Assembly (NCBI GenBank): GCA_020634895.1
Contig: JACKAV010000009.1
Span: 65,465-129,464 of the forward strand
Length of the DNA: 64,000 nt
Direction: 5' to 3'
Source: Anaerolineales bacterium
Lineage (GTDB): Bacteria; Chloroflexota; Anaerolineae; Anaerolineales; Villigracilaceae
Shown: one piece after another, positions 11,839 through 64,000 of the stretch
Position numbering within the stretch: position 1 is the first letter of the stretch
Layout of the letters: every line of letters begins with the position of its first letter
The notes under the pieces: generated by a model
The model's database searches: none
What the model was told of the DNA's origin: nothing
The model's input: only the letters and a program-made list of their open reading frames with translations
Translations under genes and position numbers: made by a program

Positions 11839-11971
11839 AAGTTTTTTAACCAATTACGATGCCTTGCAAGGTGCGGCAAGAAAAACACGGAGAAGCCCTG
11901 GCATGGTTCAGTTAAACCTAGTTTAAAAATTATAAACCCTCCCACCGAGAAAACTCAGCGAGAGGGCTCCA

Positions 11972-11991
11972 AACCTTCAACCTTCAACCCT
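11972..11991. repeat. 7-nt tandem repeat, three units
   Basis: aaccttc aaccttc aaccct directly after the moeB stop. Confidence 0.5.
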
Positions 11992-13145
11992 TAATACAAC
12001 GGCAAACTCGTATCCACTTCCTCTGCCCAGGCGTTGATTCCGCCTTTGAGGTTCTTCATCTTCTTGAAACCGGCGGACGAGAGAATTTCGATGGCGCGCG
12101 CCGAGCGTGATCCGCGTTTGCAGAAGACGACCATCTCTGTAGCAGAATCAAGCTCAGACATACGCTGGGCAACTTCACCGAGCGGGATGTTCTTTGCGCC
12201 ATCAATGGCAGCGATCTCCAACTCGTGAGGCTCACGCACATCGAGCAGGAGCAGGTCCGGGTCACGTTCGAGGCGGGCTTTTAATTCCTGCGCTGTGATG
12301 TCCCAATCCGCGCCCGCAGACGTATCATCCGCATGATGACCGGGCACACCACAAAACTCCTCGTAGTCGATCAACTCGGTGATATCGGCATTCGGTCCGC
12401 ACACACGGCAGTTGGGATTCTTCTTGAGCTTGACGAAATCAAAACTCATATCGAGCGCGTTGTATAGCAGGAGTTTTCCAATCAGCGGCTCGCCGATTCC
12501 AAGCAGGACTTTGAGCGCCTCGGTGGCTTGAAGTGTGCCGATCGTTCCGGGCAGGATGCCCAGCACGCCTCCCTCCGCGCACGAAGGGACAAGCCCGGGC
12601 GGCGGCGGTTCGGGGAAAAGACAGCGATAGCACGGACCTTCCTCGGCGTGAAAGACGCTCACTTGCCCATCGAAGCGGAAGATGGAGCCGTAGATATTCG
12701 GTTTGCCGAGCATCACGCAGACATCGTTGGTGAGATAACGGGTCGGAAAGTTATCGGTGCCGTCGATAATGACATCGTAATCCTTCGCGATGCGCAAGGC
12801 GTTCTCTGATGTATACGGCTCGTTATAAATATCCACCTGAATGTCCGGATTCAAATCCTGCAAGCGTTCGCGGGCACTTTCAACTTTCAACTTTCCAACT
12901 GTGCTCGTTCCGTGAATGACCTGACGCTGAAGGTTGGACGAATCTACAACGTCGTAATCCACCAAGCCAATGCGACCGATGCCAGCCGCGGCGAGGTAAA
13001 GCGCAACGGGAGAGCCAAGTCCGCCTGTGCCGATGACGAGAACAGAAGAGTTCTTGAGTTTGATCTGTCCCTGCAAGCCGACTTCGGGCATGAGCAGGTG
13101 ACGCGAGTAACGCAATATTTGTTCGTGATTAAGTTCTTCGATCAT
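11991..13145 (-). CDS. moeB: MoeB/MoeZ-type E1-like adenylyltransferase with C-terminal rhodanese domain
   Basis: RYSRH, GTGGLGS, SNLQRQ, CYRC and CRVC zinc motifs, PSCAEGG, rhodanese FCKRGSRS. Confidence 0.93.
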   Translation of the reverse strand: MIEELNHEQILRYSRHLLMPEVGLQGQIKLKNSSVLVIGTGGLGSPVALYLAAAGIGRIGLVDYDVVDSSNLQRQVIHGTSTVGKLKVESARERLQDLNPDIQVDIYNEPYTSENALRIAKDYDVIIDGTDNFPTRYLTNDVCVMLGKPNIYGSIFRFDGQVSVFHAEEGPCYRCLFPEPPPPGLVPSCAEGGVLGILPGTIGTLQATEALKVLLGIGEPLIGKLLLYNALDMSFDFVKLKKNPNCRVCGPNADITELIDYEEFCGVPGHHADDTSAGADWDITAQELKARLERDPDLLLLDVREPHELEIAAIDGAKNIPLGEVAQRMSELDSATEMVVFCKRGSRSARAIEILSSAGFKKMKNLKGGINAWAEEVDTSLPLY

Positions 13146-26186: not shown

Positions 26187-29081
26187 TTAAGGCACATAAT
26201 AATCGATCAACAAATGCGGACGGTTCGCCTGGTCAACAGCATCGCCGCTGTAAAACGTCAGGAAGTCCGCACCAAGATCGTCGTTATCATCCAATTGGAA
26301 GGCAAGGCGGAGTTGAGTAATGCCTGTTCTGTTGATATACGTAAAAGCATTCGGCGTCAGCACAGCCCAATACCATCCACCCACAGGGTTATTCTGAATG
26401 ATCGCCGCATTTCCAAAACTGGCAGGAGACTGAAAGTCCATCGACTGGAGGGCATTCACCTTGAATGGACCAAAGAAACCGTAGGGTCCGTAACTTAAAT
26501 CCACGAGAATATTGCCATGTGTGGTGAATGGATCACTGCCCGAAATGCCCTGTAACTTTATCGTCAGGATCGCCTGCGTGATGACCGCATTATCCGGCAG
26601 ATAATCGGTGGGGAAATGCAAAATGGAACGGTATTGACGATCCTGAGCATCATCGCCAACCCGCAACGTATCCGCGGTGGAATTTTTTGTGCCGCCAATA
26701 TCGCTGTCTTCCGCTGTTTCCAGAATCCAGCCGTCATTCCTGCCGTTGGAGCGCAAACGTTCGGTCTTCACTTCATTCACTTTTTTACTGATCGAGTAGA
26801 AAGGTCCGGCAAAATTCCCATTTCCAAAACCAACCCCGCCGAGCGGATTCCCAGCCGCATCCACAAGGCTGTCATCATCCACAACGCTGAGTTGAATGGT
26901 GCCATTTCCCGTTCCGGTGCCAACTGTGACAATTGCAGTGCTTGCATCGATGGAGAGTTCGGGAATCGTGAGCCCCGTCGGTCCATTTGCAGTTAACGCA
27001 AATTGGCTCACGTCGATATACTTCACGGGTTCAGAAAAGATCACGCTGAAATGAACCGTTTCCGCCGAAGTTGGATCCGGGTCGAGGCGCAGGATCATTG
27101 TCACGATTGGAGGAGTCCGATCAAGCGTATAAGACTCTCCAGTTGTGAAATTTCCATTGCCGCCTCCAAAACCACCGAGCGGAATGCCGCTTTCATCCAC
27201 AATGCTGTCATCATCCACCAGATCGAGCCGCAGCGTTCCATCGCCCGAACCCGCGTTGACGTTGACCGTATAAGCATTCCCCGCGCCGACGACATCAACC
27301 AGAGACGCGCCTCCAACAGACCCGGAAGTGGAGAGTATAAAATCGCTGGTATCAACGCCGGTCACTGATTCGGAAAAGGTCACCGCAAAACGCGCGCCCG
27401 CATTCGCAGTCGGATTCGCATCGAGCCGCAGGATACTCGTCACAACAGCAATGTTCTTATTCACAACATAGACTTCACCATTCATGAAGCTGCCATTCCC
27501 CGCACCCGCACCGCCAAGCGGATTTTGCGAAACGTCCCTGATGCCGTCATCATCCACAACGTCGAGGCGCAGTGTACCATCGCCCGTTCCGGTATCCACG
27601 TTGACGAAGTACTCGCTTCCCGCCCCGCTGACAGCGGTTATCACCGCCCCAGAAATTCCCCCGCCGATAGTTAACACAAAATCGCCGACTTCCACGCCGG
27701 TGACATCCTCAGAAAATCGGACGAGGAAATCAACATGCTGATCCGCGGGAGAACAATTGGATGAACAGGAATGTTGAATGGAGACAATCGTTGGCGGGGT
27801 ATCTGCCTGATATGACATTTCCCTTACATATATATCCCTTTCACCATTGGTGTCCTCCGGTACATGCGCAAACGAAGTGGCGAAAAGCAGAAACCGACCA
27901 TCCCCCGAAATAGACGGCAGAATGGGGCTATCCATGCCGCTGCTGTCGTGACCGGGAACCGCCAGATACATTTGGTTTGTAGTCCGATCGGCAATGTAAA
28001 GATCGCGTCTCGGCATTCCATCACCTTTATCATCAAAACTAAAAGCGATATAACGCCCGTCCGCAGAGATGACCGAGGAATCAGACTCGCCCACCATTGC
28101 ATAACCATCTTTGTAGGAAACTAACAAAGTTGTACCAGCCTGCATATCCCGCACATAGAGTTGGGTATAACCATAAGTATCGACCGTTGTGAAATCATCT
28201 GAAGAAGTGGAGAACGTCACATATCTTCCATCGCCCGATATGGACGGTTCCGTTGAAGAGAAACCGCCCTGTACGCCGCTCGAGTTGACAGATGCGCGCA
28301 CGATCTGCCCGGTCTGTATCGAATATACAAAAACATCCGCGACACCGTTGGTATCATCGGGAACGAAATTTGTGGACCTCGAATTGAAGACCACAAAGCG
28401 TCCGTCCAGGGAGATGCTGCCATCAAAGCCGCCAGCGTTCCCAGAGACGGTAACACCGGTTGTCGTTCCCAATTGCATGTCGCGCACAAAAATATCGCCT
28501 GCACCGTTGGTATCGTTTGGCACGAGATTATCCGCTTCGGAGTCAAAGACCACAAATCGCCCATCCCCAGAAATCGACGCATTTATCGCCTCATTGTTCG
28601 GTTCGCCGCCCGTCGAAGTTAATGAAGCGCGCGATACTATTCCAGTAACTGTATCTTTGACATAAATATCGCTAAAACCATTCATATCACCCGGCAGGAG
28701 ATTAGTCGCGCCGGATTCAAAGGCGACGAAATGCCCGTCCGCCGAAATGGATGGATTGCCTCCGCCTCCGTCCGCTTCCAGACCAGCCGCATCCACCGAA
28801 ACGCGGACAATTGTGCCAAGCTGCAAGTCGCGCATAAAAACGTCACTCACGCCATTAATATCATTCGGGACGAGATTTGTCCCTTCAGATTCAAAGACGG
28901 CAAAACGCCCGTTCGCGGAAATTTGTCCGCGATACGAAATGGCATTCGAACCTGCCGAGACCCAGGTGTAGCCGCCAGCCGCGGCATGTGCAGAATCGAG
29001 ACCGCCCGGCTGAAAAAATGAAGCCAACAAGAGGAGTCCCAAAGCGCCTCTCCAAACTATTTTGTGGATATTGGGTTTCAT
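26187..29081 (-). CDS. Secreted surface protein: PD40/TolB-like beta-propeller, three Ig-like repeats, DNRLRE/CBM96-like C-terminal domain
   Basis: Signal peptide; repeated SISGDGRF...D.N...DIFVRD; repeated FSE.V.GVD..DF and GTLRLD..DDDS; LRVGDD...YRSILHF; ends YYVP. Confidence 0.85.
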   Translation of the reverse strand: MKPNIHKIVWRGALGLLLLASFFQPGGLDSAHAAAGGYTWVSAGSNAISYRGQISANGRFAVFESEGTNLVPNDINGVSDVFMRDLQLGTIVRVSVDAAGLEADGGGGNPSISADGHFVAFESGATNLLPGDMNGFSDIYVKDTVTGIVSRASLTSTGGEPNNEAINASISGDGRFVVFDSEADNLVPNDTNGAGDIFVRDMQLGTTTGVTVSGNAGGFDGSISLDGRFVVFNSRSTNFVPDDTNGVADVFVYSIQTGQIVRASVNSSGVQGGFSSTEPSISGDGRYVTFSTSSDDFTTVDTYGYTQLYVRDMQAGTTLLVSYKDGYAMVGESDSSVISADGRYIAFSFDDKGDGMPRRDLYIADRTTNQMYLAVPGHDSSGMDSPILPSISGDGRFLLFATSFAHVPEDTNGERDIYVREMSYQADTPPTIVSIQHSCSSNCSPADQHVDFLVRFSEDVTGVEVGDFVLTIGGGISGAVITAVSGAGSEYFVNVDTGTGDGTLRLDVVDDDGIRDVSQNPLGGAGAGNGSFMNGEVYVVNKNIAVVTSILRLDANPTANAGARFAVTFSESVTGVDTSDFILSTSGSVGGASLVDVVGAGNAYTVNVNAGSGDGTLRLDLVDDDSIVDESGIPLGGFGGGNGNFTTGESYTLDRTPPIVTMILRLDPDPTSAETVHFSVIFSEPVKYIDVSQFALTANGPTGLTIPELSIDASTAIVTVGTGTGNGTIQLSVVDDDSLVDAAGNPLGGVGFGNGNFAGPFYSISKKVNEVKTERLRSNGRNDGWILETAEDSDIGGTKNSTADTLRVGDDAQDRQYRSILHFPTDYLPDNAVITQAILTIKLQGISGSDPFTTHGNILVDLSYGPYGFFGPFKVNALQSMDFQSPASFGNAAIIQNNPVGGWYWAVLTPNAFTYINRTGITQLRLAFQLDDNDDLGADFLTFYSGDAVDQANRPHLLIDYYVP

Positions 29082-29203
29082 ACTGCTCTCCTTCAAATGT
29101 GAAACAAATCCCCGCTTATTTTCACAACCTCATCATATATCCAAAAAATGAGACTCGATTATTTCAAAATCATTCTAGATTTTCCAACCAGGGTATGTAA
29201 CAA

Positions 29204-29266: not shown

Positions 29267-32206
29267 TTACGGAACCGGCAATCCCTCGCACAAGGTTCGA
29301 TATTCCTCATCCCCAAAGAAGAAGGTCCATTCGGATTGGCTGAAATTTTTTGTGAGGCGGCTGCAAGCGGCATTGACAATGGCGTCGCCCTGTATCTCAG
29401 CCACCACAGAAGTATCGTAGAAGAGGATCGTCCTCAACGAGGAGGAAAACAATTGCTTCCCGTCGGGTGAATATGCGAGCGAAGTAACATCCCCCTTCTG
29501 GCGGATGCGATACACCTCCTCGCCGGTAGCGGCATTGACAATGATGATCTGATCCTGCTCGCCCAACAGCAGACGGTCACCGCCGGGATTAAACGCCATC
29601 GAAAACGCCTGGTCTGCGGCAAAAACCGCAACCTGCTCGAACCCAGATACTTCTGCCTGCCAGATATGTGTATCTGTCAGGGTGTTCGCGGAGAGGATTT
29701 TCCCTTCCGGGTTGAATTCCACAAGTTGATTTTTGCCGGACGAATCAAGTTCGGAAACAACGGTATCGGCGGTCAGATCCACAACGATCACTTTATCGTC
29801 AAGACCCAAAGCCGCCAGATTCGTTGATGAAACTGAAAGCGAATAAATGGGCAGGTCACTTTGATAAATGACCCCGCTTTCAGAACCATCCAAACCTCTT
29901 CTTTGCAAAAGTCCCGCTTCACTGCCGAGGATAAGGGTGTTTCCATCTGGTGAATAAGCGATGCGCTGCCTTGCACCAGCATTGACCAGAGTGCGATAAC
30001 TGCCAGCGACCAGGTTCGAGATTATCACCTGCCCATCATCCAGGGAAATCGCCATCTGGTCTCCGTTCGGGCTGATGGCAATGTCATAGACGGTGTTCGC
30101 GCCAAAATCGAGCAGCGGATTTTTCTTTATAACCGTCTGCGTGGCATCAAGCACGGGGTCGAGTAGCCAAACCTGCGCCTTGGTCGAGGCGGCGAACCAA
30201 TCCCCATTGGGACTTACTTTTATATTTTCCGTCGAATCGGTAAAACGCAGGAAACCATCCGTCATTTGAAGGGCAGAAATATTCCAAATGGAAACCTGCC
30301 CGTCCATATCACCGGTGACGATATAACTTGAATCTGAACTGAAAGCCAGAGACGTTCCGGTCGCTTCGATCGGGATCTGAAATATCTCAGCGCCATTTGC
30401 CGTGTCCCAAATCCTTACCGTCCGATCGGAACCAGTGGAAGCGATCCACAGTCCATCCGGACTGATCTTAACCTCCTGCACAATGCTGTCCTGCAACATG
30501 CGCAGACGTTCCTCGCCAGATTTCACATCCCATATACGGATACGGAAATCATCAGAACTGGTAACAAACCATGTACCATCCGGGCTGAAGGCAACGTTGG
30601 TAACCCTATCCTCATTTAGAACGCGCAGCAATTCCCCGCCCGTATATGGACTGGTAAGCACAGCGTAATTATCGGCACTTCCAGATATCAACTGCTGACT
30701 ATCAGGGCTGAACGCGATCTCATATACTTCTTTTTTATGAGCAGGGCTGTTTATGATCTGACCCGTGTGCAAGTTCCAAAACGTGATCGAGCCGAGGTTC
30801 GATGCCGCGGCAAACCATAATCCATCCGGGCTGAAAGCAGTGACCTGCAGGCTGCCATACACAGACAACTCCGCCGAAAGTTCATAGTTCGACAGTTTTA
30901 TCAGATCGATCTTGCTGTCATCCCGCGCCATTGCCAGCAGTTTTCCGTCCGGGCTGATGTTCACAGCACGCACCGACACACCCAGGTTGATCTTTTTCAC
31001 CAAGTCGCCATTTTCGGCATCGATGATCTGCACCTCGCCGCTGTCGTCGCTGGTGACCAATATCTTTCCATCGGGACTGAACGTCGCATCCAACACGGAC
31101 CCGGAACTGGTCGTACAAAACAAGCTTTCGCCATCCTCAAAGCGGGTCAAACAAGCGGAGCCGTCCTCGCCCGACGACACAAACTTATTTCCATCAGGGC
31201 TTACTTCAAGGTCGATAATGGAACCTTCGTGTTGTATCTGCGCAACAGGGATGGGCAGCAGACTGATGTTCTTCCGCAGGATTCCTTCCGCCTCCACCGA
31301 ACTGTTGCGTTGATATGAATCTATGGCAAGTAATGTGCTGGTAAACAACCCGCCCGAACGCGATTGATAGATCTGCGCACGCGCCGCACTGCGCTGCGCC
31401 TTGGCAATGACCTCGTTTTTCTCTGCAGAAGCCTTCGCTGCCAGCGCGGCATGAGCACTGTCGTTCGCAAGCTTTTCGTTCTTTTGTGCGAGGACTCTTT
31501 GCGCATCGGCTTCCTGCGCATTGGAGACAGCCTGATTTCGTTGATCGAGCGCCAGCAATGAGAGAAAGACTGTAACCAGCAAAACGATCACAGCCGAGAT
31601 CCAGATGGCTGTGCGGAGTCTCTCATCCCTGCGGCTGAACGTGATGTAATGTCTCTGCAGGTCAGACGGCAAAGGGTCTTTCTCTGCAAAGACCACAATC
31701 ATCCTGTTAGCATTGCGGAGGTCCCTGCCGCGCAACAGCAAACTGGCATCCTTTTTACGATCCCACTCCAGCGCGCGGACCTGCAAGCGGCGGTGTTCCT
31801 GAAGCCATTCGATATCGATATTGATTGCTACTTTAACTTTGTCCAAGCCCACAGTAAAATCGTCCGTTTCGCGGATGAAGATCCAATTCAAGTCGCGGAC
31901 GAATTCCTCTACCTCTTTCGGTGTCACATCGCGGACAACGATCGGGATGATGCGCTTTGCATTCTTATGCGCATGGTTCAACTCCACCTTGCAAACTTCA
32001 GACGCAATTGAATCCGGACTGATAAGGAAGATAAACGCATCAGCCTCTTCAATACCCTGCAGGATCTGGTCCAGCCAGCCCACAGCAGGCGGGATATCCT
32101 CCCAGTCCACCCACACATCCAGATCAATGGCTTTAAATTCCTCGATCAATTTGCGGGCAACGGCAGAATCTTTTCGCGAATAAGAAACAAAAACACCGGT
32201 CATCAA
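29267..32206 (-). CDS. TIR domain, helical region, TM helix and WD40 beta-propeller(s)
   Basis: VFVSYSRKD...SEVCKVEL TIR; LQVRALEW...LLRG segment; TM IWISAVIVLLVTVFLSLLAL; many FSPDG and RIWD repeats. Confidence 0.88.
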   Translation of the reverse strand: MMTGVFVSYSRKDSAVARKLIEEFKAIDLDVWVDWEDIPPAVGWLDQILQGIEEADAFIFLISPDSIASEVCKVELNHAHKNAKRIIPIVVRDVTPKEVEEFVRDLNWIFIRETDDFTVGLDKVKVAINIDIEWLQEHRRLQVRALEWDRKKDASLLLRGRDLRNANRMIVVFAEKDPLPSDLQRHYITFSRRDERLRTAIWISAVIVLLVTVFLSLLALDQRNQAVSNAQEADAQRVLAQKNEKLANDSAHAALAAKASAEKNEVIAKAQRSAARAQIYQSRSGGLFTSTLLAIDSYQRNSSVEAEGILRKNISLLPIPVAQIQHEGSIIDLEVSPDGNKFVSSGEDGSACLTRFEDGESLFCTTSSGSVLDATFSPDGKILVTSDDSGEVQIIDAENGDLVKKINLGVSVRAVNISPDGKLLAMARDDSKIDLIKLSNYELSAELSVYGSLQVTAFSPDGLWFAAASNLGSITFWNLHTGQIINSPAHKKEVYEIAFSPDSQQLISGSADNYAVLTSPYTGGELLRVLNEDRVTNVAFSPDGTWFVTSSDDFRIRIWDVKSGEERLRMLQDSIVQEVKISPDGLWIASTGSDRTVRIWDTANGAEIFQIPIEATGTSLAFSSDSSYIVTGDMDGQVSIWNISALQMTDGFLRFTDSTENIKVSPNGDWFAASTKAQVWLLDPVLDATQTVIKKNPLLDFGANTVYDIAISPNGDQMAISLDDGQVIISNLVAGSYRTLVNAGARQRIAYSPDGNTLILGSEAGLLQRRGLDGSESGVIYQSDLPIYSLSVSSTNLAALGLDDKVIVVDLTADTVVSELDSSGKNQLVEFNPEGKILSANTLTDTHIWQAEVSGFEQVAVFAADQAFSMAFNPGGDRLLLGEQDQIIIVNAATGEEVYRIRQKGDVTSLAYSPDGKQLFSSSLRTILFYDTSVVAEIQGDAIVNAACSRLTKNFSQSEWTFFFGDEEYRTLCEGLPVP

Positions 32207-32460: not shown

Positions 32461-35400
32461 TCACGGCACATAATATTTTATCGTCAACTGCGGGCGGGCA
32501 TAAAGCACTCCATAATCGCCGCTGAAAAACGACAGGTAATCGTCGCGCCGGTTGTCGTCGTCATCGACAAGGAAGCCAAGCCTGAATTGCGTCACGCCCT
32601 GGAGGTTGATAAATGGGAAGGAGCGAGCATCCAAATTCGACCAATACCAACCGCCCACCGGGTTATCCAAAATAATCCCTGCAGAATACAAACTGGCAGG
32701 AGCCTGAAAATCGGAATTTTGCAAAGACCCGATCTGGAATGGTCCAAAACTGCCGAATGCGCCTTCGCGAATATCGATCCAAATATAACGATGCGACACA
32801 AAAGGATTTTTCCCAACGATCGTTTCAAGCTGCAGAGTCAATATCGCCTGCGTGATAACCGCGTTATCCGGCATGGATTCGGTCGGGAACTGCAAGATGG
32901 AACGATATTGATTATCCTGCGCGTTATCGCCCACACGAATCGTGGCAGACCTCGAATTGACCGTCCCGCCACGATTGCTCGTCTCTTTCGATTCAAGGAT
33001 CCACCCATCATCCGCGCCATCTGAATAAAAGACGGCAGAGTAAATAACGGGCGTATTTCTGTCAATGGTATACGTCTCACCGGAAGCAAAATTCGCATTC
33101 CCAATTCCCGCACCGCCCAAAGGCGCGCCCATTGCATCCACAATGCTGTCATCGTCGAATAGATCAAGGCGGAGCGACCCATTACCGCTGCCAGTGTTGA
33201 CGACGACGGTGTAGATCGAACCCGATCCGGTAATGGATAAAAGTCCCGCATCACTCAAGCCGGAAGCTGCCAGCACAAAATCAGCCGCGTCCACACCGAA
33301 AACGGATTCAGAGAATGTGACCGCGAATCGCACCGTGTCGGCGGAGGTGGGGTCTGGGTCAGCTCGCAGGATGGAGGTCACGTACGGAGCGCTTCTGTTG
33401 ATTGTATAGGTATCGCCCGCAAAATTTCCATTTGAAATGCCAACTCCACCCAACGGCGTAGACATCGCATCAATGATACTGTCGTTGTCCGTGAGGTCGA
33501 GGCGCAGGGTTCCATCCCCGCTGCCTGTGTTGACAGTGACCATGTAAGCGCTGCCTGAGCCGGAAATTTCTGTGATGGAAGCGTTCGCAAGATTGCCGCT
33601 GGTCGAAAGGATGAAGTCTCCCGCATCCACGCCGCTGACATCCTTCGAGAAGTCCAACGCATAGCGGACAAAATCCGCGTTGGTGGACAAAGCATCCGCG
33701 CCGGAGATCGAAGTGACCACCGGAGGAACCACTGGCGCGGGAGTATCCGTTACAACAGGTGGCGGCGTGGGCGCATCAGGAATTGGCGTTGAAACATCCA
33801 GCATCGGCGTAGCCGTAGGACCCGCCGTTCCATATGGAGATTCAAAAGCACCAATATCCGGTGCGCTGCCAAAATAATTATCGTTGATTCCCGGAATAAG
33901 CACGCCCCTATCAATGTTCGGGCTGGTTGCCGAGAGCGAGAAATCTCCCCACGCAGGGTTCGTCAAACCGGGAGGATTTTCGTGCCCGTTACATTCCAAA
34001 TTTGAAGCGCGGCACAATTGATTCATGGTGGAGTAATTTACGTTCTCCCAAATGAATCGATAGCCCGTGCTCGAAGTGCTCCAGTTGTCGTAATTCCAAT
34101 CATGCCCCGTCGAACCGGCGTGATGCGCCTCTACAGAATATCCATTCCCTTGAAAGATATTGTTCCGCATGATCGAGTTATACGTGTTGCTGATCATCTC
34201 AAGCGAATTCAAGTTCGCCTGATTCGTCCAACTGGTGTTGTGATAGATCAACACCCAGCCGTCTGAATTTCGATCCCATTTGATGTTGCGGGCTGTGAAA
34301 TTCGAGAACGTATTCCGCAGCACCCAGACCGGTCCACGCGTGATCGGCGCAAGGGAAATGCCCACCAAAGTTGAATCGATCGAGTTATTCCTGAAGCGGT
34401 GATTGACGCAGGTTCCCTCCGGCTCGAGCGCATCATCACCGATGTTACGAATGGTATTGTTATAAATATCCGCATCGAACGCCACGCCGGGGTTATCCAA
34501 CGCGCCTGATGAACTTGTGTATATCCCATTGAAATAATCGTGGATCTGGTTGCCGCGCACGATTGCGCCGATATGCCCCCTGAGAACGACGGCAATCGAT
34601 TCCATTGAAGTCCCTTTGACGGCAGCCCACGGCCACGGGTCATTGACCACGTCGTACATCTCGTTATATTCGATGCGCGTGTCGTTGCCGCGGTCTTCGC
34701 CGCCAGTCCATTCGACAAAGACCGGATTCTGCAAATTATGGATGCGGTTCTTACGCACCACGATATGAGAAGCATTCGTCAAACACGCGCCGCAGCCGTA
34801 CTCCGTTCCGTAGTAACGCATCTCAAAACCTTCGATCCAGATCCAGTCACGCCCGTTCACATCGAACGCTTTGTTCAAACGCGGAATCTGCCAGGAATAT
34901 TTTGACGGCTCACGCTGGCTGCGAACATAAAGCCGCGACGTGACCGGGTCGTAATACCAACCTTCACTGATCGAAGTGTTGTTGTGTCCGCGAGAATCCA
35001 AAAGCCCATTCAGGTCGTCGTACTTGTACATGCGCTTTCCATCGCGCGTGAGGTAATAAATGCCGGGACCGATCTTCGCAAACCAAACCAGCGACTTGGA
35101 CTTGTACGGCTCCCACACATCCGATGCGAGGGTTTCGGACCCATCAAGAACTGCGCCTCCACCCTCCGCCTTGACCTGAATCCAATTTCCAGGCATTCCC
35201 GAAGCCGGAAACGTGACCGACTCATGATAGACCCCGTCCGCGACCAAAACCTGCGAGCCGGGCACAGCGCGGTTGACGCCTTCCTGAATGGTGCGGAACG
35301 GCGCCGAAACAGACCCGTCCCCGCCTGCGGGAGCATCGTCATTGACGTAAATATAATTCGAAGGTGAAAAGAATAATTCGTCTGATTGAGTCGTAAAAAT

Positions 35401-35736
35401 CCCGCCAATTTCAGTAACGCCGTCCGAGACTTTTACTTCATATGTACTTGAAGGGGCAAGGTTGAATAAACTTCCGATCAGTCTGCCGTCTTTGATACGC
35501 AAAAGATCATGCCCTGAATGCCAAACGGAATCTCCGCTTAAGCGATAGGTCATTTTCGCCGAGACAGGCAGCCCCGCACCGCTGACCACAACTCCAGCCG
35601 TTTCAATGTTGGGAACAAAACTGATCTCACTGAAACCTGCCGCAGGTATAGCCCCCGCTGACTGCACTGGCAGGATCAACATGCTTGAAACCAGCAAAAT
35701 AAATATAAAACGCGGAAAACGGATTCTCTTTCTCAT
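32461..35736 (-). CDS. Secreted surface protein: FN3-like domain, right-handed beta-helix, two Ig-like repeats, DNRLRE/CBM96-like domain
   Basis: Signal peptide; GDGSVSAPFRTIQ, Asn-ladder repeats, SPNIDRG...PDIGAFE; same Ig and C-terminal modules as 26187-29081; ends YYVP. Confidence 0.85.
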   Translation of the reverse strand: MRKRIRFPRFIFILLVSSMLILPVQSAGAIPAAGFSEISFVPNIETAGVVVSGAGLPVSAKMTYRLSGDSVWHSGHDLLRIKDGRLIGSLFNLAPSSTYEVKVSDGVTEIGGIFTTQSDELFFSPSNYIYVNDDAPAGGDGSVSAPFRTIQEGVNRAVPGSQVLVADGVYHESVTFPASGMPGNWIQVKAEGGGAVLDGSETLASDVWEPYKSKSLVWFAKIGPGIYYLTRDGKRMYKYDDLNGLLDSRGHNNTSISEGWYYDPVTSRLYVRSQREPSKYSWQIPRLNKAFDVNGRDWIWIEGFEMRYYGTEYGCGACLTNASHIVVRKNRIHNLQNPVFVEWTGGEDRGNDTRIEYNEMYDVVNDPWPWAAVKGTSMESIAVVLRGHIGAIVRGNQIHDYFNGIYTSSSGALDNPGVAFDADIYNNTIRNIGDDALEPEGTCVNHRFRNNSIDSTLVGISLAPITRGPVWVLRNTFSNFTARNIKWDRNSDGWVLIYHNTSWTNQANLNSLEMISNTYNSIMRNNIFQGNGYSVEAHHAGSTGHDWNYDNWSTSSTGYRFIWENVNYSTMNQLCRASNLECNGHENPPGLTNPAWGDFSLSATSPNIDRGVLIPGINDNYFGSAPDIGAFESPYGTAGPTATPMLDVSTPIPDAPTPPPVVTDTPAPVVPPVVTSISGADALSTNADFVRYALDFSKDVSGVDAGDFILSTSGNLANASITEISGSGSAYMVTVNTGSGDGTLRLDLTDNDSIIDAMSTPLGGVGISNGNFAGDTYTINRSAPYVTSILRADPDPTSADTVRFAVTFSESVFGVDAADFVLAASGLSDAGLLSITGSGSIYTVVVNTGSGNGSLRLDLFDDDSIVDAMGAPLGGAGIGNANFASGETYTIDRNTPVIYSAVFYSDGADDGWILESKETSNRGGTVNSRSATIRVGDNAQDNQYRSILQFPTESMPDNAVITQAILTLQLETIVGKNPFVSHRYIWIDIREGAFGSFGPFQIGSLQNSDFQAPASLYSAGIILDNPVGGWYWSNLDARSFPFINLQGVTQFRLGFLVDDDDNRRDDYLSFFSGDYGVLYARPQLTIKYYVP

Positions 35737-35828
35737 AGATGTACGAAATAACAAGGCGTGAACGCGCCGTTATCCGCTTCCACTATAGCATGGACAAACA
35801 AAAATACAATTTTCAAAACATGACAAAA

Positions 35829-57557: not shown

Positions 57558-59636
57558 ATGCCAAGCCTCAGCCTGCTTCAGCGTCAGATCATCGAATCGC
57601 CCCTCGACTCTCGTCTCTTCGTCTCCGGTGTGACGGGTACAGGCAAAACCACCGCCGGCGTCGAACGGATTCATTTCCTGCTTGAGCAGGGCATCCCCGC
57701 GGATTCGATTCTTCTGCTCACGCCACAGCGGACTCTCCAGGAGCCTTATCTCGATCTGCTGGAAAGTCCCAACCGGATGGCTGGCGGCGAAGTGACGCCC
57801 GCCACGATTGGCGGTTTGGCTCGCCGCATGTGTGACCTGTTCTGGTCACTCGCAGCGGAAAAAGCCGGCTTTCGAAACCCAGACCAGCCGCCCATCTTCC
57901 TTACGCTGGAGACAGCTCAATACTACATGGCACATCTTGTCCGCCCATTGATCGAAGAACGCGGATATTTCGAATCAGTCACCATCAATCGCAACCGTTT
58001 ATATTCCCAGATCATTGACAACCTGAACAAAGCCGCCATCGTCGGCTTTCCGCATACCGAGATCGGCGCGCGGTTGGATTCAGCTTGGTTCGGCGACCCC
58101 GCCCAGCGGCGCATCTACGCCGACGCACAGGAATGCGCGAATCTTTTCCGTCAATATTGCCTTGACCATAACCTGCTCGACTTTTCACTTCAACTTGAGA
58201 TATTCACAAACATCCTCTGGCGCGATGAACGATCGCGCTCATATCTCACTCAGACCTATCGTCACCTCATATATGACAACGTGGAAGAAGACGTCACCAG
58301 TTCGCATGACATCGTCCACGAGTGGCTGGCGGAATTCGACTCGGCGCTGCTGCTTTACGATCAGGCGGCAGGGTATCGCAAATTTCTGGGCGGCGATCCA
58401 GAAAGCGGCTTGGCATTGAGCCGTGATTGTGATCAAGTCATCGAATTGAATGAGTCGTTCGTCTCATCGGAAAATATCATCCAACTATCCAACGCGTTGG
58501 TATCCGCTGTCACCGAACAGGAGATCATGGAAGCTGGTGAAAGCGCGTCTGCGATGGAATTCATCATGACGCATTTTCACCCGGAGATGTTGGATGAAGT
58601 TGTGGAGCGGATCCGTTCGCTGCTCGAGGCTGGGACGCCGCCATCGGAGATCGTTATCCTCGCGCCGTATCTTTCCGACTCGCTGCGTTTCTCGATCACG
58701 AACAGACTCAACATCGCAGAAATCCCCTGGCGCAGCAACCGACCATCTCGTTCCCTGCGAGACGAAACCGCCAGCAAAACCTTGTTGACTCTTGCCGCGC
58801 TCGCGCATCCGCATTGGAATGTTCAACCGAATAAATTCGACGTATCACATGCATTGATGTTCGCATTGGGCACGGACCTGATCCGCGCTCAATTGCTGAC
58901 GGACATTGTTTACAGTCAACGTGAACTTCGGCTTTCCGCGTTCGATATCATCAAACCAGAAACGCAGGAACGCATCACCTACTCGCTCGGCTCGCGCTAT
59001 ACGTTACTGCGCGAATGGATCGAGAATTACCGCGCGTCTGAACCTTTGCCGTTCGATTTCTTCCTGCGGAAATTTTTCGGTGAAGTGTTATCCCAGCCTG
59101 AGTATGGTTTTCATTCCGATCTCGACTCCGTGCGGATCGCCGCAAGCCTCGTTGAATCGGTCAAGAAATTCAGGAATGCGATGGAACCCGCGCTGGAAAA
59201 TGACATGGACTTGGGCGTGGAATACATCACCATGCTGCAGGACGGCGTCATCGCCGCACAGTATCTCGAGTCATGGCGAAGCGAAGACAAAGATGCCGTA
59301 TTGGTCGCACCCGCCTACACCTTCCTGATGATGAACCGTCCCGCCGCGTTTCAATTCTGGCTCGACCCCGGCTCGGACGGCTGGTCGCAGCGCGTGTCGC
59401 AGCCGCTCACCCATCCCTATGTCCTTTCACGATACTGGGAACCGGGACGCATCTGGCAGGACTCTGACGAAGTGGAAATGGAAATAGAAACGCTCGCACG
59501 CCTCACGGGCGGACTTTTAGCCCGCTGCCGCGAAAAGATTTTTCTTGCCCTTTCAGACCTCGGCGCATCCGGCTTCGAGCAGCGTGGAAAATTACTAAGA
59601 GCATTTCAGAAGGTGCTGCAAAGCCAGGCTGGGTAA
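57558..59636 (+). CDS. UvrD/SF1 helicase-like protein with degenerate Walker B
   Basis: SGVTGTGKT, ILLLTP (motif Ia), LLDF, LIYDNVEED in place of DExQD. Confidence 0.75.
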   Translation: MPSLSLLQRQIIESPLDSRLFVSGVTGTGKTTAGVERIHFLLEQGIPADSILLLTPQRTLQEPYLDLLESPNRMAGGEVTPATIGGLARRMCDLFWSLAAEKAGFRNPDQPPIFLTLETAQYYMAHLVRPLIEERGYFESVTINRNRLYSQIIDNLNKAAIVGFPHTEIGARLDSAWFGDPAQRRIYADAQECANLFRQYCLDHNLLDFSLQLEIFTNILWRDERSRSYLTQTYRHLIYDNVEEDVTSSHDIVHEWLAEFDSALLLYDQAAGYRKFLGGDPESGLALSRDCDQVIELNESFVSSENIIQLSNALVSAVTEQEIMEAGESASAMEFIMTHFHPEMLDEVVERIRSLLEAGTPPSEIVILAPYLSDSLRFSITNRLNIAEIPWRSNRPSRSLRDETASKTLLTLAALAHPHWNVQPNKFDVSHALMFALGTDLIRAQLLTDIVYSQRELRLSAFDIIKPETQERITYSLGSRYTLLREWIENYRASEPLPFDFFLRKFFGEVLSQPEYGFHSDLDSVRIAASLVESVKKFRNAMEPALENDMDLGVEYITMLQDGVIAAQYLESWRSEDKDAVLVAPAYTFLMMNRPAAFQFWLDPGSDGWSQRVSQPLTHPYVLSRYWEPGRIWQDSDEVEMEIETLARLTGGLLARCREKIFLALSDLGASGFEQRGKLLRAFQKVLQSQAG

Positions 59637-59660
59637 AACAAAAGGAAATTGGGAATTTTC

Positions 59661-60803
59661 ATGAATATCCGAAAACGACCTTTGATCATCGCAAGCGTGT
59701 TTTTATTTGCGCTTTCCCTGTTCATTCGCTACCAAATATTGGGTTTCCAAAACCTCGATATGGTCCGGCTGCGTGAATGGTATGACTTTCTCCTTCACAA
59801 CGGCTACAAAGGTCTTGCGAATGGAGAGTTCTCAAATTACCCGCCTCTTTATCTTTATCTATTATTTTTCGCTACCCTTCTTAATAAATGGATCGATCCA
59901 TTTACAGCCATCAAACTTATCCCAACAGCTTTCGACCTGATCTCATTGGTTGCTGTTTACAAGATCGCCCGCGTCAAATATGACGGGGACAAGCCATACC
60001 TGATCGCATCTGCGTTTTTCCTCCTGCCGACCGTTATGTATAACAGTTCAGGCTGGGGGCAAATAGACGGCATGTACGGCGCGTTTTTGCTAATCTGCTT
60101 TTACTTTCTCCTCACAGAACGTCCCTTTTGGGCAATGGTCGCGTTCGGACTTGGCTTTTCCATCAAGGCACAGTCCATTTTTATTCTGCCCTTTCTGGGA
60201 ATCATGTTCCTCAGAAAACGAATCCGATGGTACGACTTTCTCATTGTGCCAGTCGTCTATCTTATTCTCGCGCTGCCGACTGTCATGCTTGGGCGGAGTT
60301 GGGAAAGCATTCTGTTCCTTTATGTGGGGCAGGCACAACAATTCAGCGAACTTGCGCGTTATGTCCCGAACTTATACATCCTATTGGTGGGACAACCGCT
60401 TCATCCCGCCTTCGAGATCGGCATGACCATCTTCGCAGTCTGCATGTTTGCATGGGCATGGGTCAATTGGAAAGCCAAAACACCAGTTACACAGAAACAG
60501 CTTGCGCTTACCGCATTGGCAAGCGCGGCACTCGTTCCATTTCTTCTACCCAAAATGCTGGATCGTTATTTCTATCCCGCGGACATCTTTTCGTTTGTCA
60601 CCGCGATCTTCATTCCCGAATTATGGTTCTTCGCCCTGTTTTTCCAGATAAGCTCGGGAATGGTTTATACGATCTTCACACTCGGCACGCCTCCATTGCT
60701 CGCGCTTGCCGGAGCATTGATCAATACTCCCCTTGTCTTTTTTATCATCCGCCGACAATTAAGAGCCTTGAAAGAAACTGAAGAAAATCACCCCACTCCC
60801 TAG
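59661..60803 (+). CDS. Polytopic GT-C-type glycosyltransferase (GT87/DUF2029-like)
   Basis: NYPPLY, WGQIDG, IKAQ, LPKMLDRYFY; many TM segments. Confidence 0.75.
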   Translation: MNIRKRPLIIASVFLFALSLFIRYQILGFQNLDMVRLREWYDFLLHNGYKGLANGEFSNYPPLYLYLLFFATLLNKWIDPFTAIKLIPTAFDLISLVAVYKIARVKYDGDKPYLIASAFFLLPTVMYNSSGWGQIDGMYGAFLLICFYFLLTERPFWAMVAFGLGFSIKAQSIFILPFLGIMFLRKRIRWYDFLIVPVVYLILALPTVMLGRSWESILFLYVGQAQQFSELARYVPNLYILLVGQPLHPAFEIGMTIFAVCMFAWAWVNWKAKTPVTQKQLALTALASAALVPFLLPKMLDRYFYPADIFSFVTAIFIPELWFFALFFQISSGMVYTIFTLGTPPLLALAGALINTPLVFFIIRRQLRALKETEENHPTP

Positions 60804-60811: not shown

Positions 60812-61840
60812 ATGGAATCACAACATAAACACTGGCTGCCAATTTTCCTTCTCGTCTTATTGATCGCACTGGCAGGATGGTATTACTCGCAAAATCCGCC
60901 AGTCACCGCATCCGCCACCGAACAACCCGTGACCGTACTTGAGCTTGCCGGTCCCGCCGCGGACCGTGACGCCGAATTCTCCGGCTTGGCTTGGCATGGT
61001 GAGACGCTCATTCTCCTGCCGCAATATCCCGAACGATTCGGCGATGGTGACGGCGCCCTCTTCGCCCTCTCCAAAGCGGACATCCTCGCCGCAGTAGACG
61101 GCACGCTTCAGACTCCGCTCGAGCCTGTTACCGTCCATTTGAATGCGCCCGGGCTGAAAGAGTCCATTCCCTATTTTCAGGGCTACGAATCCATCGTCTT
61201 CAACGGTGACCAGGTCTTCCTGACCATCGAAGCGGGCGAAGGGACCGATATGCACGGCTATCTCGTCACCGGCAAGATCTCGGCTGACGAGAGCGAGATC
61301 ACGTTATCCACCAATAATGTTGTCGAAATCCCATTGGCTTTCCCCTCCGATAACCACGCTGACGAAGCCATCCTCATCGAAGGGGATTCCGTTTTGACCT
61401 TCTTCGAGATCAACGGTGCGGACTTGAATTCCGCTCCCGCCGCGCATGTTTTCGATTTCGGGTTGAACCCGCAGGGGATGATTCCATTCCCGAATATCGA
61501 ATACCGCGTCACTGACGCTGCCGCCGACTCTGGAAATAATTTCTGGGTCATCAACTACTTCTTCCCCGGCGACACCGACCTTGCCACAAACCACGACCCG
61601 CTCATCGAAAAATACGGAGTGGGTCCATCTCACGCCCAACATCCGCAGATCGAACGTCTCGTTGAAATGACCTATTCACCGGAAGGCATTACACTCACCG
61701 ACACAGCGCCAATTCAACTGGAACTCGAAAGCGACGACGCCCGCAACCTCGAAGGTTTGGTGCTGCTCGATGACAAAGGCTTTTTGCTCGTAACGGATAA
61801 ATACCCTTCTACATTATTTATGTTCGTGGAAAAACCATAA
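60812..61840 (+). CDS. Secreted hypothetical protein, probable beta-propeller
   Basis: N-terminal TM/signal, EFSGLAW, NLEGL...LVTD blade-like motifs. Confidence 0.65.
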   Translation: MESQHKHWLPIFLLVLLIALAGWYYSQNPPVTASATEQPVTVLELAGPAADRDAEFSGLAWHGETLILLPQYPERFGDGDGALFALSKADILAAVDGTLQTPLEPVTVHLNAPGLKESIPYFQGYESIVFNGDQVFLTIEAGEGTDMHGYLVTGKISADESEITLSTNNVVEIPLAFPSDNHADEAILIEGDSVLTFFEINGADLNSAPAAHVFDFGLNPQGMIPFPNIEYRVTDAAADSGNNFWVINYFFPGDTDLATNHDPLIEKYGVGPSHAQHPQIERLVEMTYSPEGITLTDTAPIQLELESDDARNLEGLVLLDDKGFLLVTDKYPSTLFMFVEKP

Positions 61841-61930
61841 TCCTATAAGGAATTTTTCAGACAATGGTTGCATAATAGTTGGGGCGGCTTTTCGCAAGCC
61901 GCCCCATACTTCGTGCAATCAGAGCAGCAT

Positions 61931-63493
61931 ATGACTAAAATTCCATTTTCCGAGGTTCTGGAAAAATCCAAAATCGTAAAAGCAAAAGAACTACAGATCG
62001 AACTCCCATCACAGCCTGTCCGATATTATCGTCACGGCTGGCAGTCGTGGTCACTGGCAGCGTGGACCGATACAAGCCCAATCCCAATACCCAAGCCTGC
62101 CATCTTTCATCCATTGCAAGTGGACGTGGAACAAGTCTATAAAAAATACCTGAACGGTTCATGGCTCGGTGCGGTAGAGTTTTCCGATGGAAACATTCTT
62201 CTTCTTGGGGCGTTGGCTACAGACGCGAATGTGTCTCTCGTTCAGGATCAACTCACAGGGCAGAGTGATGCGGATGAGATCGAATGGTTCATCGCCTATG
62301 GTCAGGAAAATGTCGTCTTCGAAGAATATGCCGAACAGTTGGGACGTCGTCTCGGCAAAACAAAAAAGAACGGCGTACCGCGTGTATGGTGTTCATGGTA
62401 CAGCCTGTATCAGGCGATCAACGAAACACTGCTCGATAAAATATTCAATGAGATCGACGACCTGCCGTTCGATGTTTTACAGATCGATGACGGCTGGCAA
62501 ATGGATATTGGCGATTGGGAGGCAAATCAAAAATTTCCATCGGGCATGAAGGCGCTGGCAGACCGAATCAAATCAACGGGGCGAAGAGCCGGTCTGTGGC
62601 TTGCGCCGTTGATCGCAACAAAGTCATCACGCCTCTTTCACGAACATCCAAATTGGTTTCTGCAAAAAGAAGACGGGCGACTGGTCTCGGCTGGATTCAA
62701 TTGGGGCGAGCGTTTATACGCGCTTGATACGACGCATCCTGACGTGACCTCATGGCTGGTTGCCCTCATGAAGCGGATTCGCGGCTGGGGCTTCGATTAC
62801 CTCAAATTGGACTTTCTATATGGCGGCGCATTGAAGGGAAAGCGCTACAAAGACATTCCGCGTGAAGCCGCGTATCGTGAATGTCTGCAAACGCTGCGCG
62901 AAGCAATGGGCGCGGACGCTTTCTTCCTGACCTGCGGAACGCCCATCCTCCCCGCCATTGGGGTATGCGACGCAATCCGCATCGGACCTGATGTCGCTTA
63001 CTATTGGGAAAGATTCCATGACGCGTATTTGCTTTATAACCCCACCGTCCCAGGCACGAGGAACGCCATCCGCACAACGCTTCATCGTCTGTGGCTGAAA
63101 CCCTTATTGCACATCGACCCCGACGTCGCCTACTTCGAAACATCAGGGAATCTGCTTTCGCATGCACAGAAAATCCTGCTGCAAGACCTTGCTCACATCT
63201 GCGATTTCAAAGCGACCTCCGACCTGCCGCAATGGATGACAAAAGAAGAACACGATGAACTACGCTCCTTTTTGGATGACAAACCCAAAGTCACCCAAAC
63301 CGGACGATATACGTTCAGCGTCAACGGTCACTTTGCGGATTTCAATTCCGCGATCGAACTGCCGCACATCCCCAAAGGATTGACCGCATTGGGCGGCAGG
63401 CTTCTGGGCTGGCTGGGGAATAGATATATCATTTTACGAATGTACAAGATACTAGACCTCGGAAAACTGCGAAAGAGACGGGCGATTTTGTAA
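61931..63493 (+). CDS. Alpha-galactosidase, glycoside hydrolase family 36
   Basis: WCSWY, QIDDGWQ, YLKLDF, IRIGPD. Confidence 0.88.
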   Translation: MTKIPFSEVLEKSKIVKAKELQIELPSQPVRYYRHGWQSWSLAAWTDTSPIPIPKPAIFHPLQVDVEQVYKKYLNGSWLGAVEFSDGNILLLGALATDANVSLVQDQLTGQSDADEIEWFIAYGQENVVFEEYAEQLGRRLGKTKKNGVPRVWCSWYSLYQAINETLLDKIFNEIDDLPFDVLQIDDGWQMDIGDWEANQKFPSGMKALADRIKSTGRRAGLWLAPLIATKSSRLFHEHPNWFLQKEDGRLVSAGFNWGERLYALDTTHPDVTSWLVALMKRIRGWGFDYLKLDFLYGGALKGKRYKDIPREAAYRECLQTLREAMGADAFFLTCGTPILPAIGVCDAIRIGPDVAYYWERFHDAYLLYNPTVPGTRNAIRTTLHRLWLKPLLHIDPDVAYFETSGNLLSHAQKILLQDLAHICDFKATSDLPQWMTKEEHDELRSFLDDKPKVTQTGRYTFSVNGHFADFNSAIELPHIPKGLTALGGRLLGWLGNRYIILRMYKILDLGKLRKRRAIL

Positions 63494-63538
63494 AGTTGAT
63501 GTGGGTTATACTACCTTCAACAAAAGCTTGGAGGTTGT

Positions 63539-64000
63539 ATGTCCCCACTATTTTCTTCCAATGAGCATCCACGCAAAAGTAAGTGGGTATATTTATGGCA
63601 ATCCGCAGACATCAGGCAGAAAATTCTTATAACCCTATTGCTGGTGGCCATCTATAGATTCCTGCTCAATATCCCGGTACCTGGAATAATTTCCACGCCG
63701 GATTCGATTCGGGAAAATATAGTTCCTGGAAGCGGGCTTTACACCATGCTGGATTTCCTGAGTATGTTGTCAGGAAGTTCCCTGCTTGGTGTTTCCGTGC
63801 TGGCGCTTGGATTATTGCCATTCAACTTATCAGGGCTTTTATTAAAATTAACAATTCCCCTGATACCAAGTTTACAAATGATGTTCGAAGATGACCCGCG
63901 CGGAAGTCAGCGATGGTTTGAAAGATGGAATTATTATCTTGCTGTGCCGGTTGCAATATTTGAGGCTTTTCTTTTCCTGTTTCTGATTTCCCCGAATTGC
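63539..64000 (+). CDS. secY: Divergent SecY homologue (runs off the window; not in the ORF track)
   Basis: Manual translation: MSPLF...DIRQKILITLLLVAIYRFLLNIPVPG...LSMLSGSSLLGVSVLALGLLPFNLSGLLLKL...IPSL; SD ggagg. Confidence 0.82.
   Translation, partial: MSPLFSSNEHPRKSKWVYLWQSADIRQKILITLLLVAIYRFLLNIPVPGIISTPDSIRENIVPGSGLYTMLDFLSMLSGSSLLGVSVLALGLLPFNLSGLLLKLTIPLIPSLQMMFEDDPRGSQRWFERWNYYLAVPVAIFEAFLFLFLISPNC

Follow-up and report, generated by a model that had tools for sequence, protein, structure and literature searches.

A divergent SecY-type paralogue with a polar pore-ring residue, encoded outside the ribosomal operon of an Anaerolineales bacterium

A 64,000-nucleotide stretch of DNA from an Anaerolineales bacterium (GenBank assembly GCA_020634895.1, contig JACKAV010000009.1, positions 65,465 to 129,464 of the forward strand; hereafter the window) carries at its 3' end the beginning of a SecY-like gene, codons 1–154 of 480 at positions 63539–64000 on the forward strand, with an ATG start and a frame that stays open to the window end. 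With a probability of about 0.55, we regard it as an intact, expressed-looking gene for a functional accessory paralogue of the SecY-type channel, in which the pore and the gate are altered. The paralogue arose by duplication of the housekeeping secY of Anaerolineae and has long occupied one chromosomal site outside the ribosomal spc operon, beside superfamily 1 (SF1) helicase-like genes, with a canonical rplO-secY-adk copy very probably retained. A first-pass annotation of the window had already proposed a second SecY at this place; as a whole that reading was essentially right, while the links to surface proteins and to the accessory Sec (aSec) system that came with it are unsupported.

The SecY-like gene and its relatives in Anaerolineae

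The window holds the part of the gene that encodes the N-terminus, transmembrane helix (TM) 1, the plug helix TM2a, TM2b, TM3 and the first conserved cysteine. The open reading frame (ORF) had been recognized in the first pass by its SecY signatures, and this assignment was borne out. The frame is open and is preceded by a Shine-Dalgarno-like GGAGG (63530–63534, forward strand, read from the sequence) 4 nt 5' of the ATG, and the 154-codon fragment alone matched the TIGR00967 SecY model over residues 26–149 with an E-value of 8.1e-16, far beyond chance. The same fragment scored only 23.5 bits on the Pfam SecY model (E = 4.3e-5) because it is truncated.

To follow the gene past the window, the Logan contig L001 was found by an exact-protein look-up of the glycosidase encoded upstream, whose exact protein is also present on L001. 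The full SecY-like gene was recovered from six independent assemblies (L001, 2155–3597; L016, 10001–11443; and L017–L020), of which L018–L020 match the 462 nt of the window without a difference. The gene is intact in all six, with 480 codons, so that the truncation or frameshift considered by the first-pass annotation was not found. An exact 40-mer from the ORF had no match in the genome_contigs or metagenome_contigs collections.

By sequence and fold, the encoded protein belongs to the SecY superfamily. The full protein scored 169.4 bits on Pfam SecY (PF00344, cut-off 32.2) over profile positions 1–305 of 306, and its closest solved relatives are the SecY proteins of Aquifex and Thermus. An AlphaFold2 model (predicted local distance difference test, pLDDT, 83.4; predicted template modelling score, pTM, 0.82) displays the SecY clamshell fold with ten helices (TM1–TM10), a C4 beta-hairpin and a plug-like helix at residues 66–77. 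The top 47 Foldseek matches were all SecY or Sec61 proteins, the best being 5aww_Y, the resting-state SecY of Thermus thermophilus, with a template modelling score (TM-score) of 0.82. The ten-helix fold and the plug helix are kept, and so is the greater part of the cytoplasmic C3, C4 and C5 loops, by which SecY docks the ribosome and SecA. The marks of a housekeeping SecY were not found: the score of 186.5 bits on TIGR00967 (model positions 1–405) is below the NCBI equivalog cut-off of 253.6, the gene is not in the spc position next to rplO or adk, and the pore ring is not hydrophobic at position 86 (Escherichia coli numbering). Nine members of the paralogue family, including the window protein, reached 150–206 bits on this model, as compared with 295–301 bits for canonical Anaerolineae SecYs.

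A search of 5.8 billion proteins returned 18 near cluster representatives with 42–57% identity, below which hundreds of SecYs from Anaerolineae and Chloroflexota followed at 39–43%; identity to canonical Anaerolineae SecYs is 40–43%. In a neighbour-joining (NJ) tree, 19 sequences (P0002–P0020) formed one long-branched clade, and 101 canonical Anaerolineae SecYs were short-branched. Bootstrap support was 81.5% for this clade, hereafter the Asn-Asn clade, and 98% for the grouping of the paralogue family with the canonical Anaerolineae SecYs, as against other bacterial SecYs. Paralogue and canonical proteins have in common the Anaerolineae motifs WxYLW, EEDPR, SEYGIRGQG, RRNIPVxYPGR and HGYQ. These lineage motifs and the 98% grouping indicate that the paralogue is a duplication inside the Anaerolineae lineage, unrelated to the SecY2 of Firmicutes. 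An orthologue of that accessory SecY2 (aSec) would likewise be a second SecY outside the spc operon, and in one species glycosyltransferase and glycosidase genes do lie upstream, but we give this explanation next to no credence. The SecY2 models TIGR02920 and NF009082 gave 55.4 and 53.8 bits against cut-offs of 249.6 and 353, canonical Anaerolineae SecYs scored more than the paralogue on the same models (116–128 bits), the paralogue groups with the latter, and no secA2, asp1-5 or gtfA/B gene and no serine-rich repeat substrate was seen at about 11 loci.

The position outside the spc operon holds for the clade at large. The two short-branched loci of the tree that were inspected (P0069, and P0184 of the P0055 cluster) and the Candidatus Villigracilis locus L045 all show the order rplO-secY-adk-map, whereas the long-branched clade lies outside rplO-secY-adk in the window species and at L002, L003, L005, L011, L104 and L106. 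With a wider family included, paralogues were outside the spc operon at all of the about 11 loci inspected. No description of a Chloroflexota SecY paralogue was found in the literature, and annotation is inconsistent, one partial member being a 'hypothetical protein' in NCBI and others plain 'SecY'. This paralogue family of Anaerolineae is apparently undescribed.

The wider family emerged from a clade-profile search of 1.84 billion representatives as about 22 full-length clusters at 50% identity, interleaved with canonical SecYs. These clusters share a pair of cysteines with the clade; the Pro and Phe of TM7 are lost, and the core ring is no longer constrained, as in the strings ISFVTL, LAFVLF and LFFVMV. 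Their loci are outside the spc operon, and the neighbours differ from locus to locus: a Type ISP restriction-modification gene at one, rplS with an SNF2-PLD/DUF1156 cluster at another, and at two further ones DUF1801 with a C39-like peptidase and a short-chain dehydrogenase with YjbQ. A 'double-Cys' family can be defined by a Cys after TM3 and another after TM7, a relaxed core ring, the absence of the TM7 Pro and Phe and a locus outside the spc operon; the window protein belongs to it (C154, C329, ring and TM7 changes), and monophyly of the whole is weakly supported (41% NJ bootstrap). A profile search aimed at the taxonomy of the wider family matched mostly canonical Anaerolineales SecYs. Among the matches listed, alignment-driven scans gave no paralogue locus in genome_contigs and at least five in metagenome_contigs (L104, L105, L106, L120 and L143). 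In one lineage, the SecY-like proteins P0006 (L003, 10001–11674) and P0210 bear an extra N-terminal extension of about 80 amino acids with a LiaI-LiaF-like transmembrane domain.

Pore ring, gate helices and cysteines

The six pore-ring positions, V/I/L/I/I/I, were invariant in 101 of 101 canonical Anaerolineae SecYs. In the 19 sequences of the clade, the ring reads L (18/19) at the first position, N (15) or K (3) at the second, N (14) or M (3) at the third, then I, then I, V or L, and I at the last. The window protein keeps Ile at E. coli positions 191, 278 and 408 and has Asn at 86 and 187. Its TM2b, ALGLLPFNLSGLLLKL, differs from that of E. coli by I82→L92, I86→N96 and Q93→K103; the Asn96 codon is AAC at 63824–63826 (forward strand), which the alignment matches with the pore-ring residues Ile86 of E. 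coli and Ile81 of T. thermophilus. The numbering follows a sequence which we take to be that of E. coli SecY, and it agrees with a HMMER alignment to T. thermophilus SecY, in which N96 again corresponds to Ile81. Together with three further isoleucines, the latter determines the pore radius (PMC8612361). Across bacteria, 118 of 119 canonical-like representatives carry Ile at position 86, and the four core pore-ring isoleucines are kept in 111–118 of 119 diverse representatives.

The earlier reading of TM2b and of Ile86→Asn was thus reproduced by alignment and extends to 15 of the 19 clade members, while the canonical SecYs of near relatives are without the clade's residues. A Gln→Lys exchange that had been reported along with it is present as Q93→K103, but it is species-specific (1/19, with Gln in 8/19) and was rejected as a clade signature. 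An Asn in the TM2b core ring and a second one at the TM5 ring position are among the changes that became fixed in the clade.

Further changes cluster in TM7 (I275→D/E in 16/19, P276→G in 19/19, F279→G in 16/19, S281→Q in 19/19) and at the outer start of TM10 (G402→D/E in 18/19, T404→E in 16/19, S405→K in 14/19), and new motifs are conserved, namely G310, S314 and Q315 in 19/19 together with SPNCEG and LLDGEK. In TM7, an Asp is situated a turn below the ring and the invariant Pro and Phe of this helix are lost; an Asp/Glu-Gly-Glu-Lys cluster stands at the outer start of TM10. Canonical-invariant residues are kept in the clade at 64% in the cytoplasmic loops, 45% in the TM helices and 24% in TM7, and despite this no segment is better conserved among clade members than TM7. 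This is the pattern of a pore and gate that were rebuilt and then fixed. As judged from the sequences, the remodelled pore and gate lie beneath a docking face that was preserved for the most part. Loss of the E. coli R357 equivalent was considered as a paralogue feature and dropped, since canonical Anaerolineae SecYs also have N, H or S there, with the Arg shifted by one.

Two cysteines that co-vary, one directly after TM3 and one directly after TM7, complete the set of changes. Cys154 (codon TGC at 63998–64000, forward strand) belongs to the clade motif SPNCEG on the outer face, four residues past the modelled end of TM3 (150), and its partner Cys329, encoded beyond the window, lies in APLxxC one residue past the modelled end of TM7 (328). 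Both are extracytoplasmic, each at the end of a helix of the lateral-gate region. The pair co-varies perfectly: 17/19 sequences have both cysteines and 2/19 have neither. TM3 borders the lateral gate. The gate itself is formed by TM2b and TM7, according to a review. The natural inference is a predicted C154–C329 disulfide that would staple the gate from outside.

How such a channel may work can be outlined as follows. It would pair with the housekeeping small subunits and receive its substrates from the ribosome or SecA; the pore would be more polar and more easily opened at its constriction, and the predicted disulfide may hold the lateral gate shut on the outer side. Polypeptides would then pass across the membrane, not into it, for cargo that the standard channel handles poorly. 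The first-pass annotation had spoken of a second, specialised translocon or insertase: the second SecY stands, the type of channel is something that we infer, and the co-varying cysteine pair, which stands where the lateral-gate helices end on the outside, would if anything count against an insertase.

Probable coexistence with a canonical secY, selection and expression

To assess whether a canonical secY next to rplO is present in the same organism, co-abundance was analysed, since many activated-sludge runs contain the window sequence. From eight such runs (X1 and X2 being one and the same sample), Logan contigs with ≥80% identity were aligned to the Ca. Villigracilis saccharophilus locus L045 (5500–8200), over its rplO-secY-adk-map region. 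Two canonical-type contig populations, type A and type B, were obtained, with single contigs joining rplO to secY and others covering the 3' half of secY and map. The depths of the window and of type B were 166.6 and 154.8 in X1, 152.3 and 162.3 in X2, 18.4 and 17.9 in X6, ∼5.7 and 5.3 in X3, 15.5 and 11.7 in X4, 5.4 and 5.45 in X9, 7.3 and 6.24 in X11, and ∼5.3 and 4.74 in X17, respectively. The ratio of type B to window depth was 0.75–1.07, with a log-log correlation of r = 0.998 over the eight runs and 0.98 in the six low-depth runs; type A deviated from the window depth by up to three-fold. Differences shared relative to L045 are third-position changes and leave SMGVYPYITAQII intact. As the type B rplO-secY contigs track the window depth in eight runs, a strong though circumstantial case, a canonical rplO-secY very probably coexists with the paralogue in the same organism, and the finding that would have made it the only secY was not obtained. 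Type A, examined in runs X1, X2, X4, X6 and X17, equals the window organism in depth in the two deepest runs but not in others, and comes probably from a related Villigracilis-like species co-blooming in that plant. None of 80 canonical loci agreed with the shared variants when these were used to look for the canonical gene of the organism itself; P0184 was rejected as a candidate, being from a groundwater organism.

The AT-richness noted in the first pass was confirmed, the SecY-like fragment having a GC content of 0.433 vs 0.516 for the window. GC content at third codon positions (GC3) is about 0.445–0.448 in the SecY-like gene and 0.55–0.64 in neighbouring genes; since an MFS membrane protein has a GC3 of 0.63, the AT-richness is real and goes beyond membrane-protein composition. 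Low GC3 recurs in the relatives of the gene.

These data bear on the alternative that the organism has no other secY, the housekeeping gene having left the spc operon and evolved rapidly. The window itself is without another secY, as this would predict, but we consider it very improbable: canonical rplO-secY contigs follow the window depth in all eight runs, they differ from Villigracilis at third codon positions while keeping the segment given above, Asn occupies a core pore-ring position that is Ile in 118/119, the score is under the equivalog cut-off, and the low GC3 is unlike that of a normally highly expressed gene.

Within the species, six segregating sites were found among the six assemblies, five synonymous and one a conservative V85I (P = 0.005 under neutrality), a polymorphism that argues for purifying selection. 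Between genera, dS (synonymous divergence) is saturated and dN (nonsynonymous divergence) is 0.33–0.50, with 0.27–0.30 for the flanking helicase-like gene. A 151-nt contig of a wastewater metatranscriptome matches 63608–63758 exactly, which is weak evidence of transcription. A decaying duplicate or incipient pseudogene, whose odd residues reflect drift, could account for the long branches, the low GC3 and the relaxed pore-ring positions of the wider family. We consider this extremely unlikely: six assemblies carry an unbroken frame of 480 codons, with five synonymous polymorphisms to one conservative, full-length homologues exist in many lineages, G310, S314 and Q315 (19/19), SPNCEG and LLDGEK are conserved in a clade-specific manner, the Cys pair co-varies perfectly, and the same locus was kept while its flanks diverged to 63–66% identity. 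The three findings which that annotation had named as speaking against it, namely a sole secY, a broken gene, or the same residues in the canonical SecYs of close relatives, were all looked for and none was made.

Neighbouring genes, possible roles and known systems

In the window, the SecY-like gene follows, as the first pass had it, a glycosidase and not rplO. This is a 520-amino-acid (aa) melibiase-like/GH31-type glycoside hydrolase (61931–63493, forward strand; Pfam Melibiase 1.2e-18, GH31 TIM barrel 9.6e-10), and no ribosomal-protein gene was found within 8 kb upstream of the SecY-like gene. The two genes are 45 nt apart with no terminator-like site between them and are thus probably co-transcribed. 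A promoter and terminator scan gave nothing above shuffles. A GC-rich terminator-like hairpin (ggggcggc-ttttcgca-agccgcccc; 61881–61905, forward strand) lies before the glycosidase start and after a gene for a 342-aa protein without a Pfam family (60812–61840, forward strand), so that glycosidase and SecY-like gene may form a transcription unit of their own. Further upstream on the same strand are a GT87-family membrane glycosyltransferase (59649–60803, by Pfam) and a degenerate SF1 (UvrD-like) helicase-like protein of 692 aa (57558–59636; Pfam UvrD-helicase 5.4e-6), preceded by an ABC-auxiliary-like protein and SppA. The GT87, 342-aa and glycosidase genes are species-specific cargo between the helicase-like and the SecY-like gene, with no counterpart at the corresponding position in L002, L011, L104 and L106.

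The constant neighbours of the Asn-Asn clade are the degenerate SF1 helicase-like gene upstream (692–723 aa) and a UvrD/PcrA-like gene downstream (768–849 aa), with intergenic gaps as small as 2–22 nt; no close solved relative of the pair was found. Its members lie at 2619–4700 and 8546–11095 in L011, 7886–9979 and 12072–14378 in L002, 18–1937 and 4550–7027 in L106, and 5763–7934 in L104. Upstream helicase-like orthologues are 63–66% identical in L011, L002 and L106, and a similar gene of 723 aa, recognised through Pfam and its C-terminal 120 aa, is present in L104; 22 nt separate it from the SecY-like gene in L002, and 3 nt do so in L104. L106 combines a flank of 66% identity to that of the window with a SecY-like protein of only 42%. 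The region between the pair gathers variable cargo, such as toxin-antitoxin genes in L011.

A 47-codon ORF directly after the SecY-like gene of L002 (11446–11589, compared with 9850–9979) was rejected as a SecE/Asp4-like partner, because it is a relic of the helicase-like C-terminus: it comprises 125 nt of the helicase 3' end, with 83% amino acid identity over 42 aa and 91% nucleotide identity over 68 nt. This direct repeat flanking the SecY-like gene suggests insertion or allelic replacement by recombination. In L016, the SecY-like gene is followed at 11590–12615 by a gene for a 341-aa protein with a lipoprotein signal (LSSLAC), a Pro/Thr-rich linker and no family, not conserved at that position in other genera; a UvrD gene is also downstream. 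Six contigs of P0020 loci (L005–L010; five from separate ENA metagenome assemblies and one from an NCBI genome assembly) end ∼100 nt past the SecY-like gene, where a repeat or mobile element probably follows immediately.

The first-pass annotation had further advised a search for linked secA2/asp-like genes and had considered a possible role in handling the large surface proteins of the lineage. No secA2, asp, secE/secG-like or conserved substrate gene was adjacent at the about 11 loci (8–10 kb), and a tie to a SecA2/Asp-type system is unsupported. The 'large surface proteins' are probably the ORFs of 969 and 1097 aa at 26187–29096 and 32461–35754 (both reverse strand), which have weak PD40/Big_12 matches; they lie in the 26–36 kb region, at least 28 kb away from the SecY-like gene, and no linkage was seen. 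These two ORFs flank a gene for a 979-aa protein with an N-terminal TIR_2 domain and a WD40 beta-propeller (29267–32206, reverse strand), and a 478-aa TIR_2 and FGE-sulfatase protein is encoded at 10417–11853 (reverse strand); both may act in defence or signalling.

The conserved surroundings raise the main rival reading, a role other than translocation: as a SecY-derived pore or decoy in a variable, defence-island-like hotspot that works with the flanking SF1 helicase-like ATPases, either as a membrane effector or as a conduit which these motors drive; as an inhibitor- or toxin-resistant spare of a target of phages, CDI toxins or natural products; or as a regulator that titrates SecA or the ribosome. 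The helicase-like/SecY-like/UvrD-like sandwich (692–723 and 768–849 aa for the outer genes, gaps of 2–22 nt) recurs across genera with flanks of 63–66% identity around a SecY-like gene of 42–57%, L002 has its 125-nt helicase relic, and the adjoining cargo includes TumE toxin-like, ParE/PemK, TIR/PDC-S35, Type ISP restriction-modification, SNF2-PLD helicase and SIR2 genes. The changes in the protein cluster in TM2b, TM7 and the plug-facing outer side, and it is the pore ring and plug of Sec61/SecY that are mutated in decatransin resistance (PMC8082313). We nevertheless rate such a role as rather unlikely. PADLOC-DB 2.0 has no model that matches the SecY-like protein, the flanking helicases matching generic UvrD/GajB models; defence-type genes are near about 5 of 11 loci and none is within 8 kb in the window; the neighbours in the wider family are unrelated and lack the helicase pair; insertions between the helicase-like and the SecY-like gene argue against obligatory co-translation; and synteny in related genomes, here perhaps around an insertion hotspot, can be explained without a functional link. 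A bolder version, which we hold to be improbable, is an undescribed Anaerolineae-wide SecY-derived family with a relaxed ring and a stapled gate, whose Asn-Asn clade, settled in a fast-evolving hotspot between the two SF1 helicase-like genes, works with these ATPases, e.g., as a dedicated conduit or membrane effector in defence, and not in SecA export.

Several observations weigh against the functional accessory channel that we favour. The two asparagines differ in weight: position 86 is near-invariant, whereas at position 187 canonical SecYs vary naturally among I, V, A, M, T and S, with Thr in that of T. thermophilus. The C4-loop sequences diverge in several clade members, and docking of SecA or the ribosome is therefore not assured. 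No dedicated motor or small-subunit genes are linked at the about 11 loci. The evidence for coexistence is co-abundance across runs, not a single closed genome, and in the two deepest runs type A has a depth similar to that of the window organism. Finally, the single RNA contig could be contaminating DNA, and low GC3 together with sparse RNA suggests weak expression.

SecY is among the most conserved membrane proteins, as the 111–118 of 119 for its ring isoleucines illustrate, and polar ring substitutions are known mainly as laboratory prl suppressors. A selected natural paralogue family with a polar ring would serve as a ready-made experiment, bearing on ring chemistry, gate opening, sealing, signal-peptide proofreading and the choice between insertion and secretion. 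If our reading is true, accessory SecY channels extend beyond Firmicutes (and plastids) to Chloroflexota, with no dedicated SecA2, and a putative disulfide ties the outer ends of TM3 and TM7, helices of the lateral-gate region. On the practical side, inconsistent annotation may mislead marker-gene and completeness analyses of wastewater Anaerolineae genomes.

Compared with the housekeeping SecY of Anaerolineae (TIGR00967/PF00344), the paralogue has the same ten-TM fold (TM-score 0.82 to T. thermophilus SecY), plug helix, lineage motifs and most of the C3/C4/C5 loops. It differs by its locus outside the spc operon, its score (186.5 vs 253.6 bits), its low GC3, the Ile→Asn exchange in the ring, a TM7 that reads I-G-x-D-G-L-I-G-S-Q instead of N-M-A-G-M-I-P-L-I-F-A, the D/E-G-E-K at the start of TM10, the Cys pair after TM3 and TM7 and a ∼30-aa insertion in the TM5–TM6 hinge.

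In plastids, an ancient duplication gave rise to SCY2, a second SecY with its own cargo set, paired with SECA2. That system, which we cite as general background with no comparison run, is eukaryotic-organellar and has its own SecA2, and to our knowledge SCY2 has neither a polar ring nor a Cys pair. The SecY2 of streptococci, staphylococci and lactobacilli resembles the paralogue in being a second, non-essential-looking SecY outside the ribosomal operon and a presumed specialised channel. The paralogue is of independent origin in Anaerolineae, no SecA2, Asp1-5 or Gtf gene and no serine-rich substrate was seen at its loci, and its ring is not conserved, whereas S. gordonii SecY2 is reported to keep the conserved pore ring (PMC5076819).

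The closest likeness in the ring itself is to prlA4 I408N of E. coli, in which a polar Asn also replaces a pore-ring Ile; prl alleles relax the proofreading of signal sequences. In simulation, the equivalent of I408N destabilised the ring-plug seal and TM7 and let water pass (PMC8612361). The prlA alleles are laboratory suppressors in a single essential gene and map to TM10, unlike the Asn of the paralogue on TM2b (plus that on TM5), a change fixed by natural selection in a separate paralogue, together with many others.

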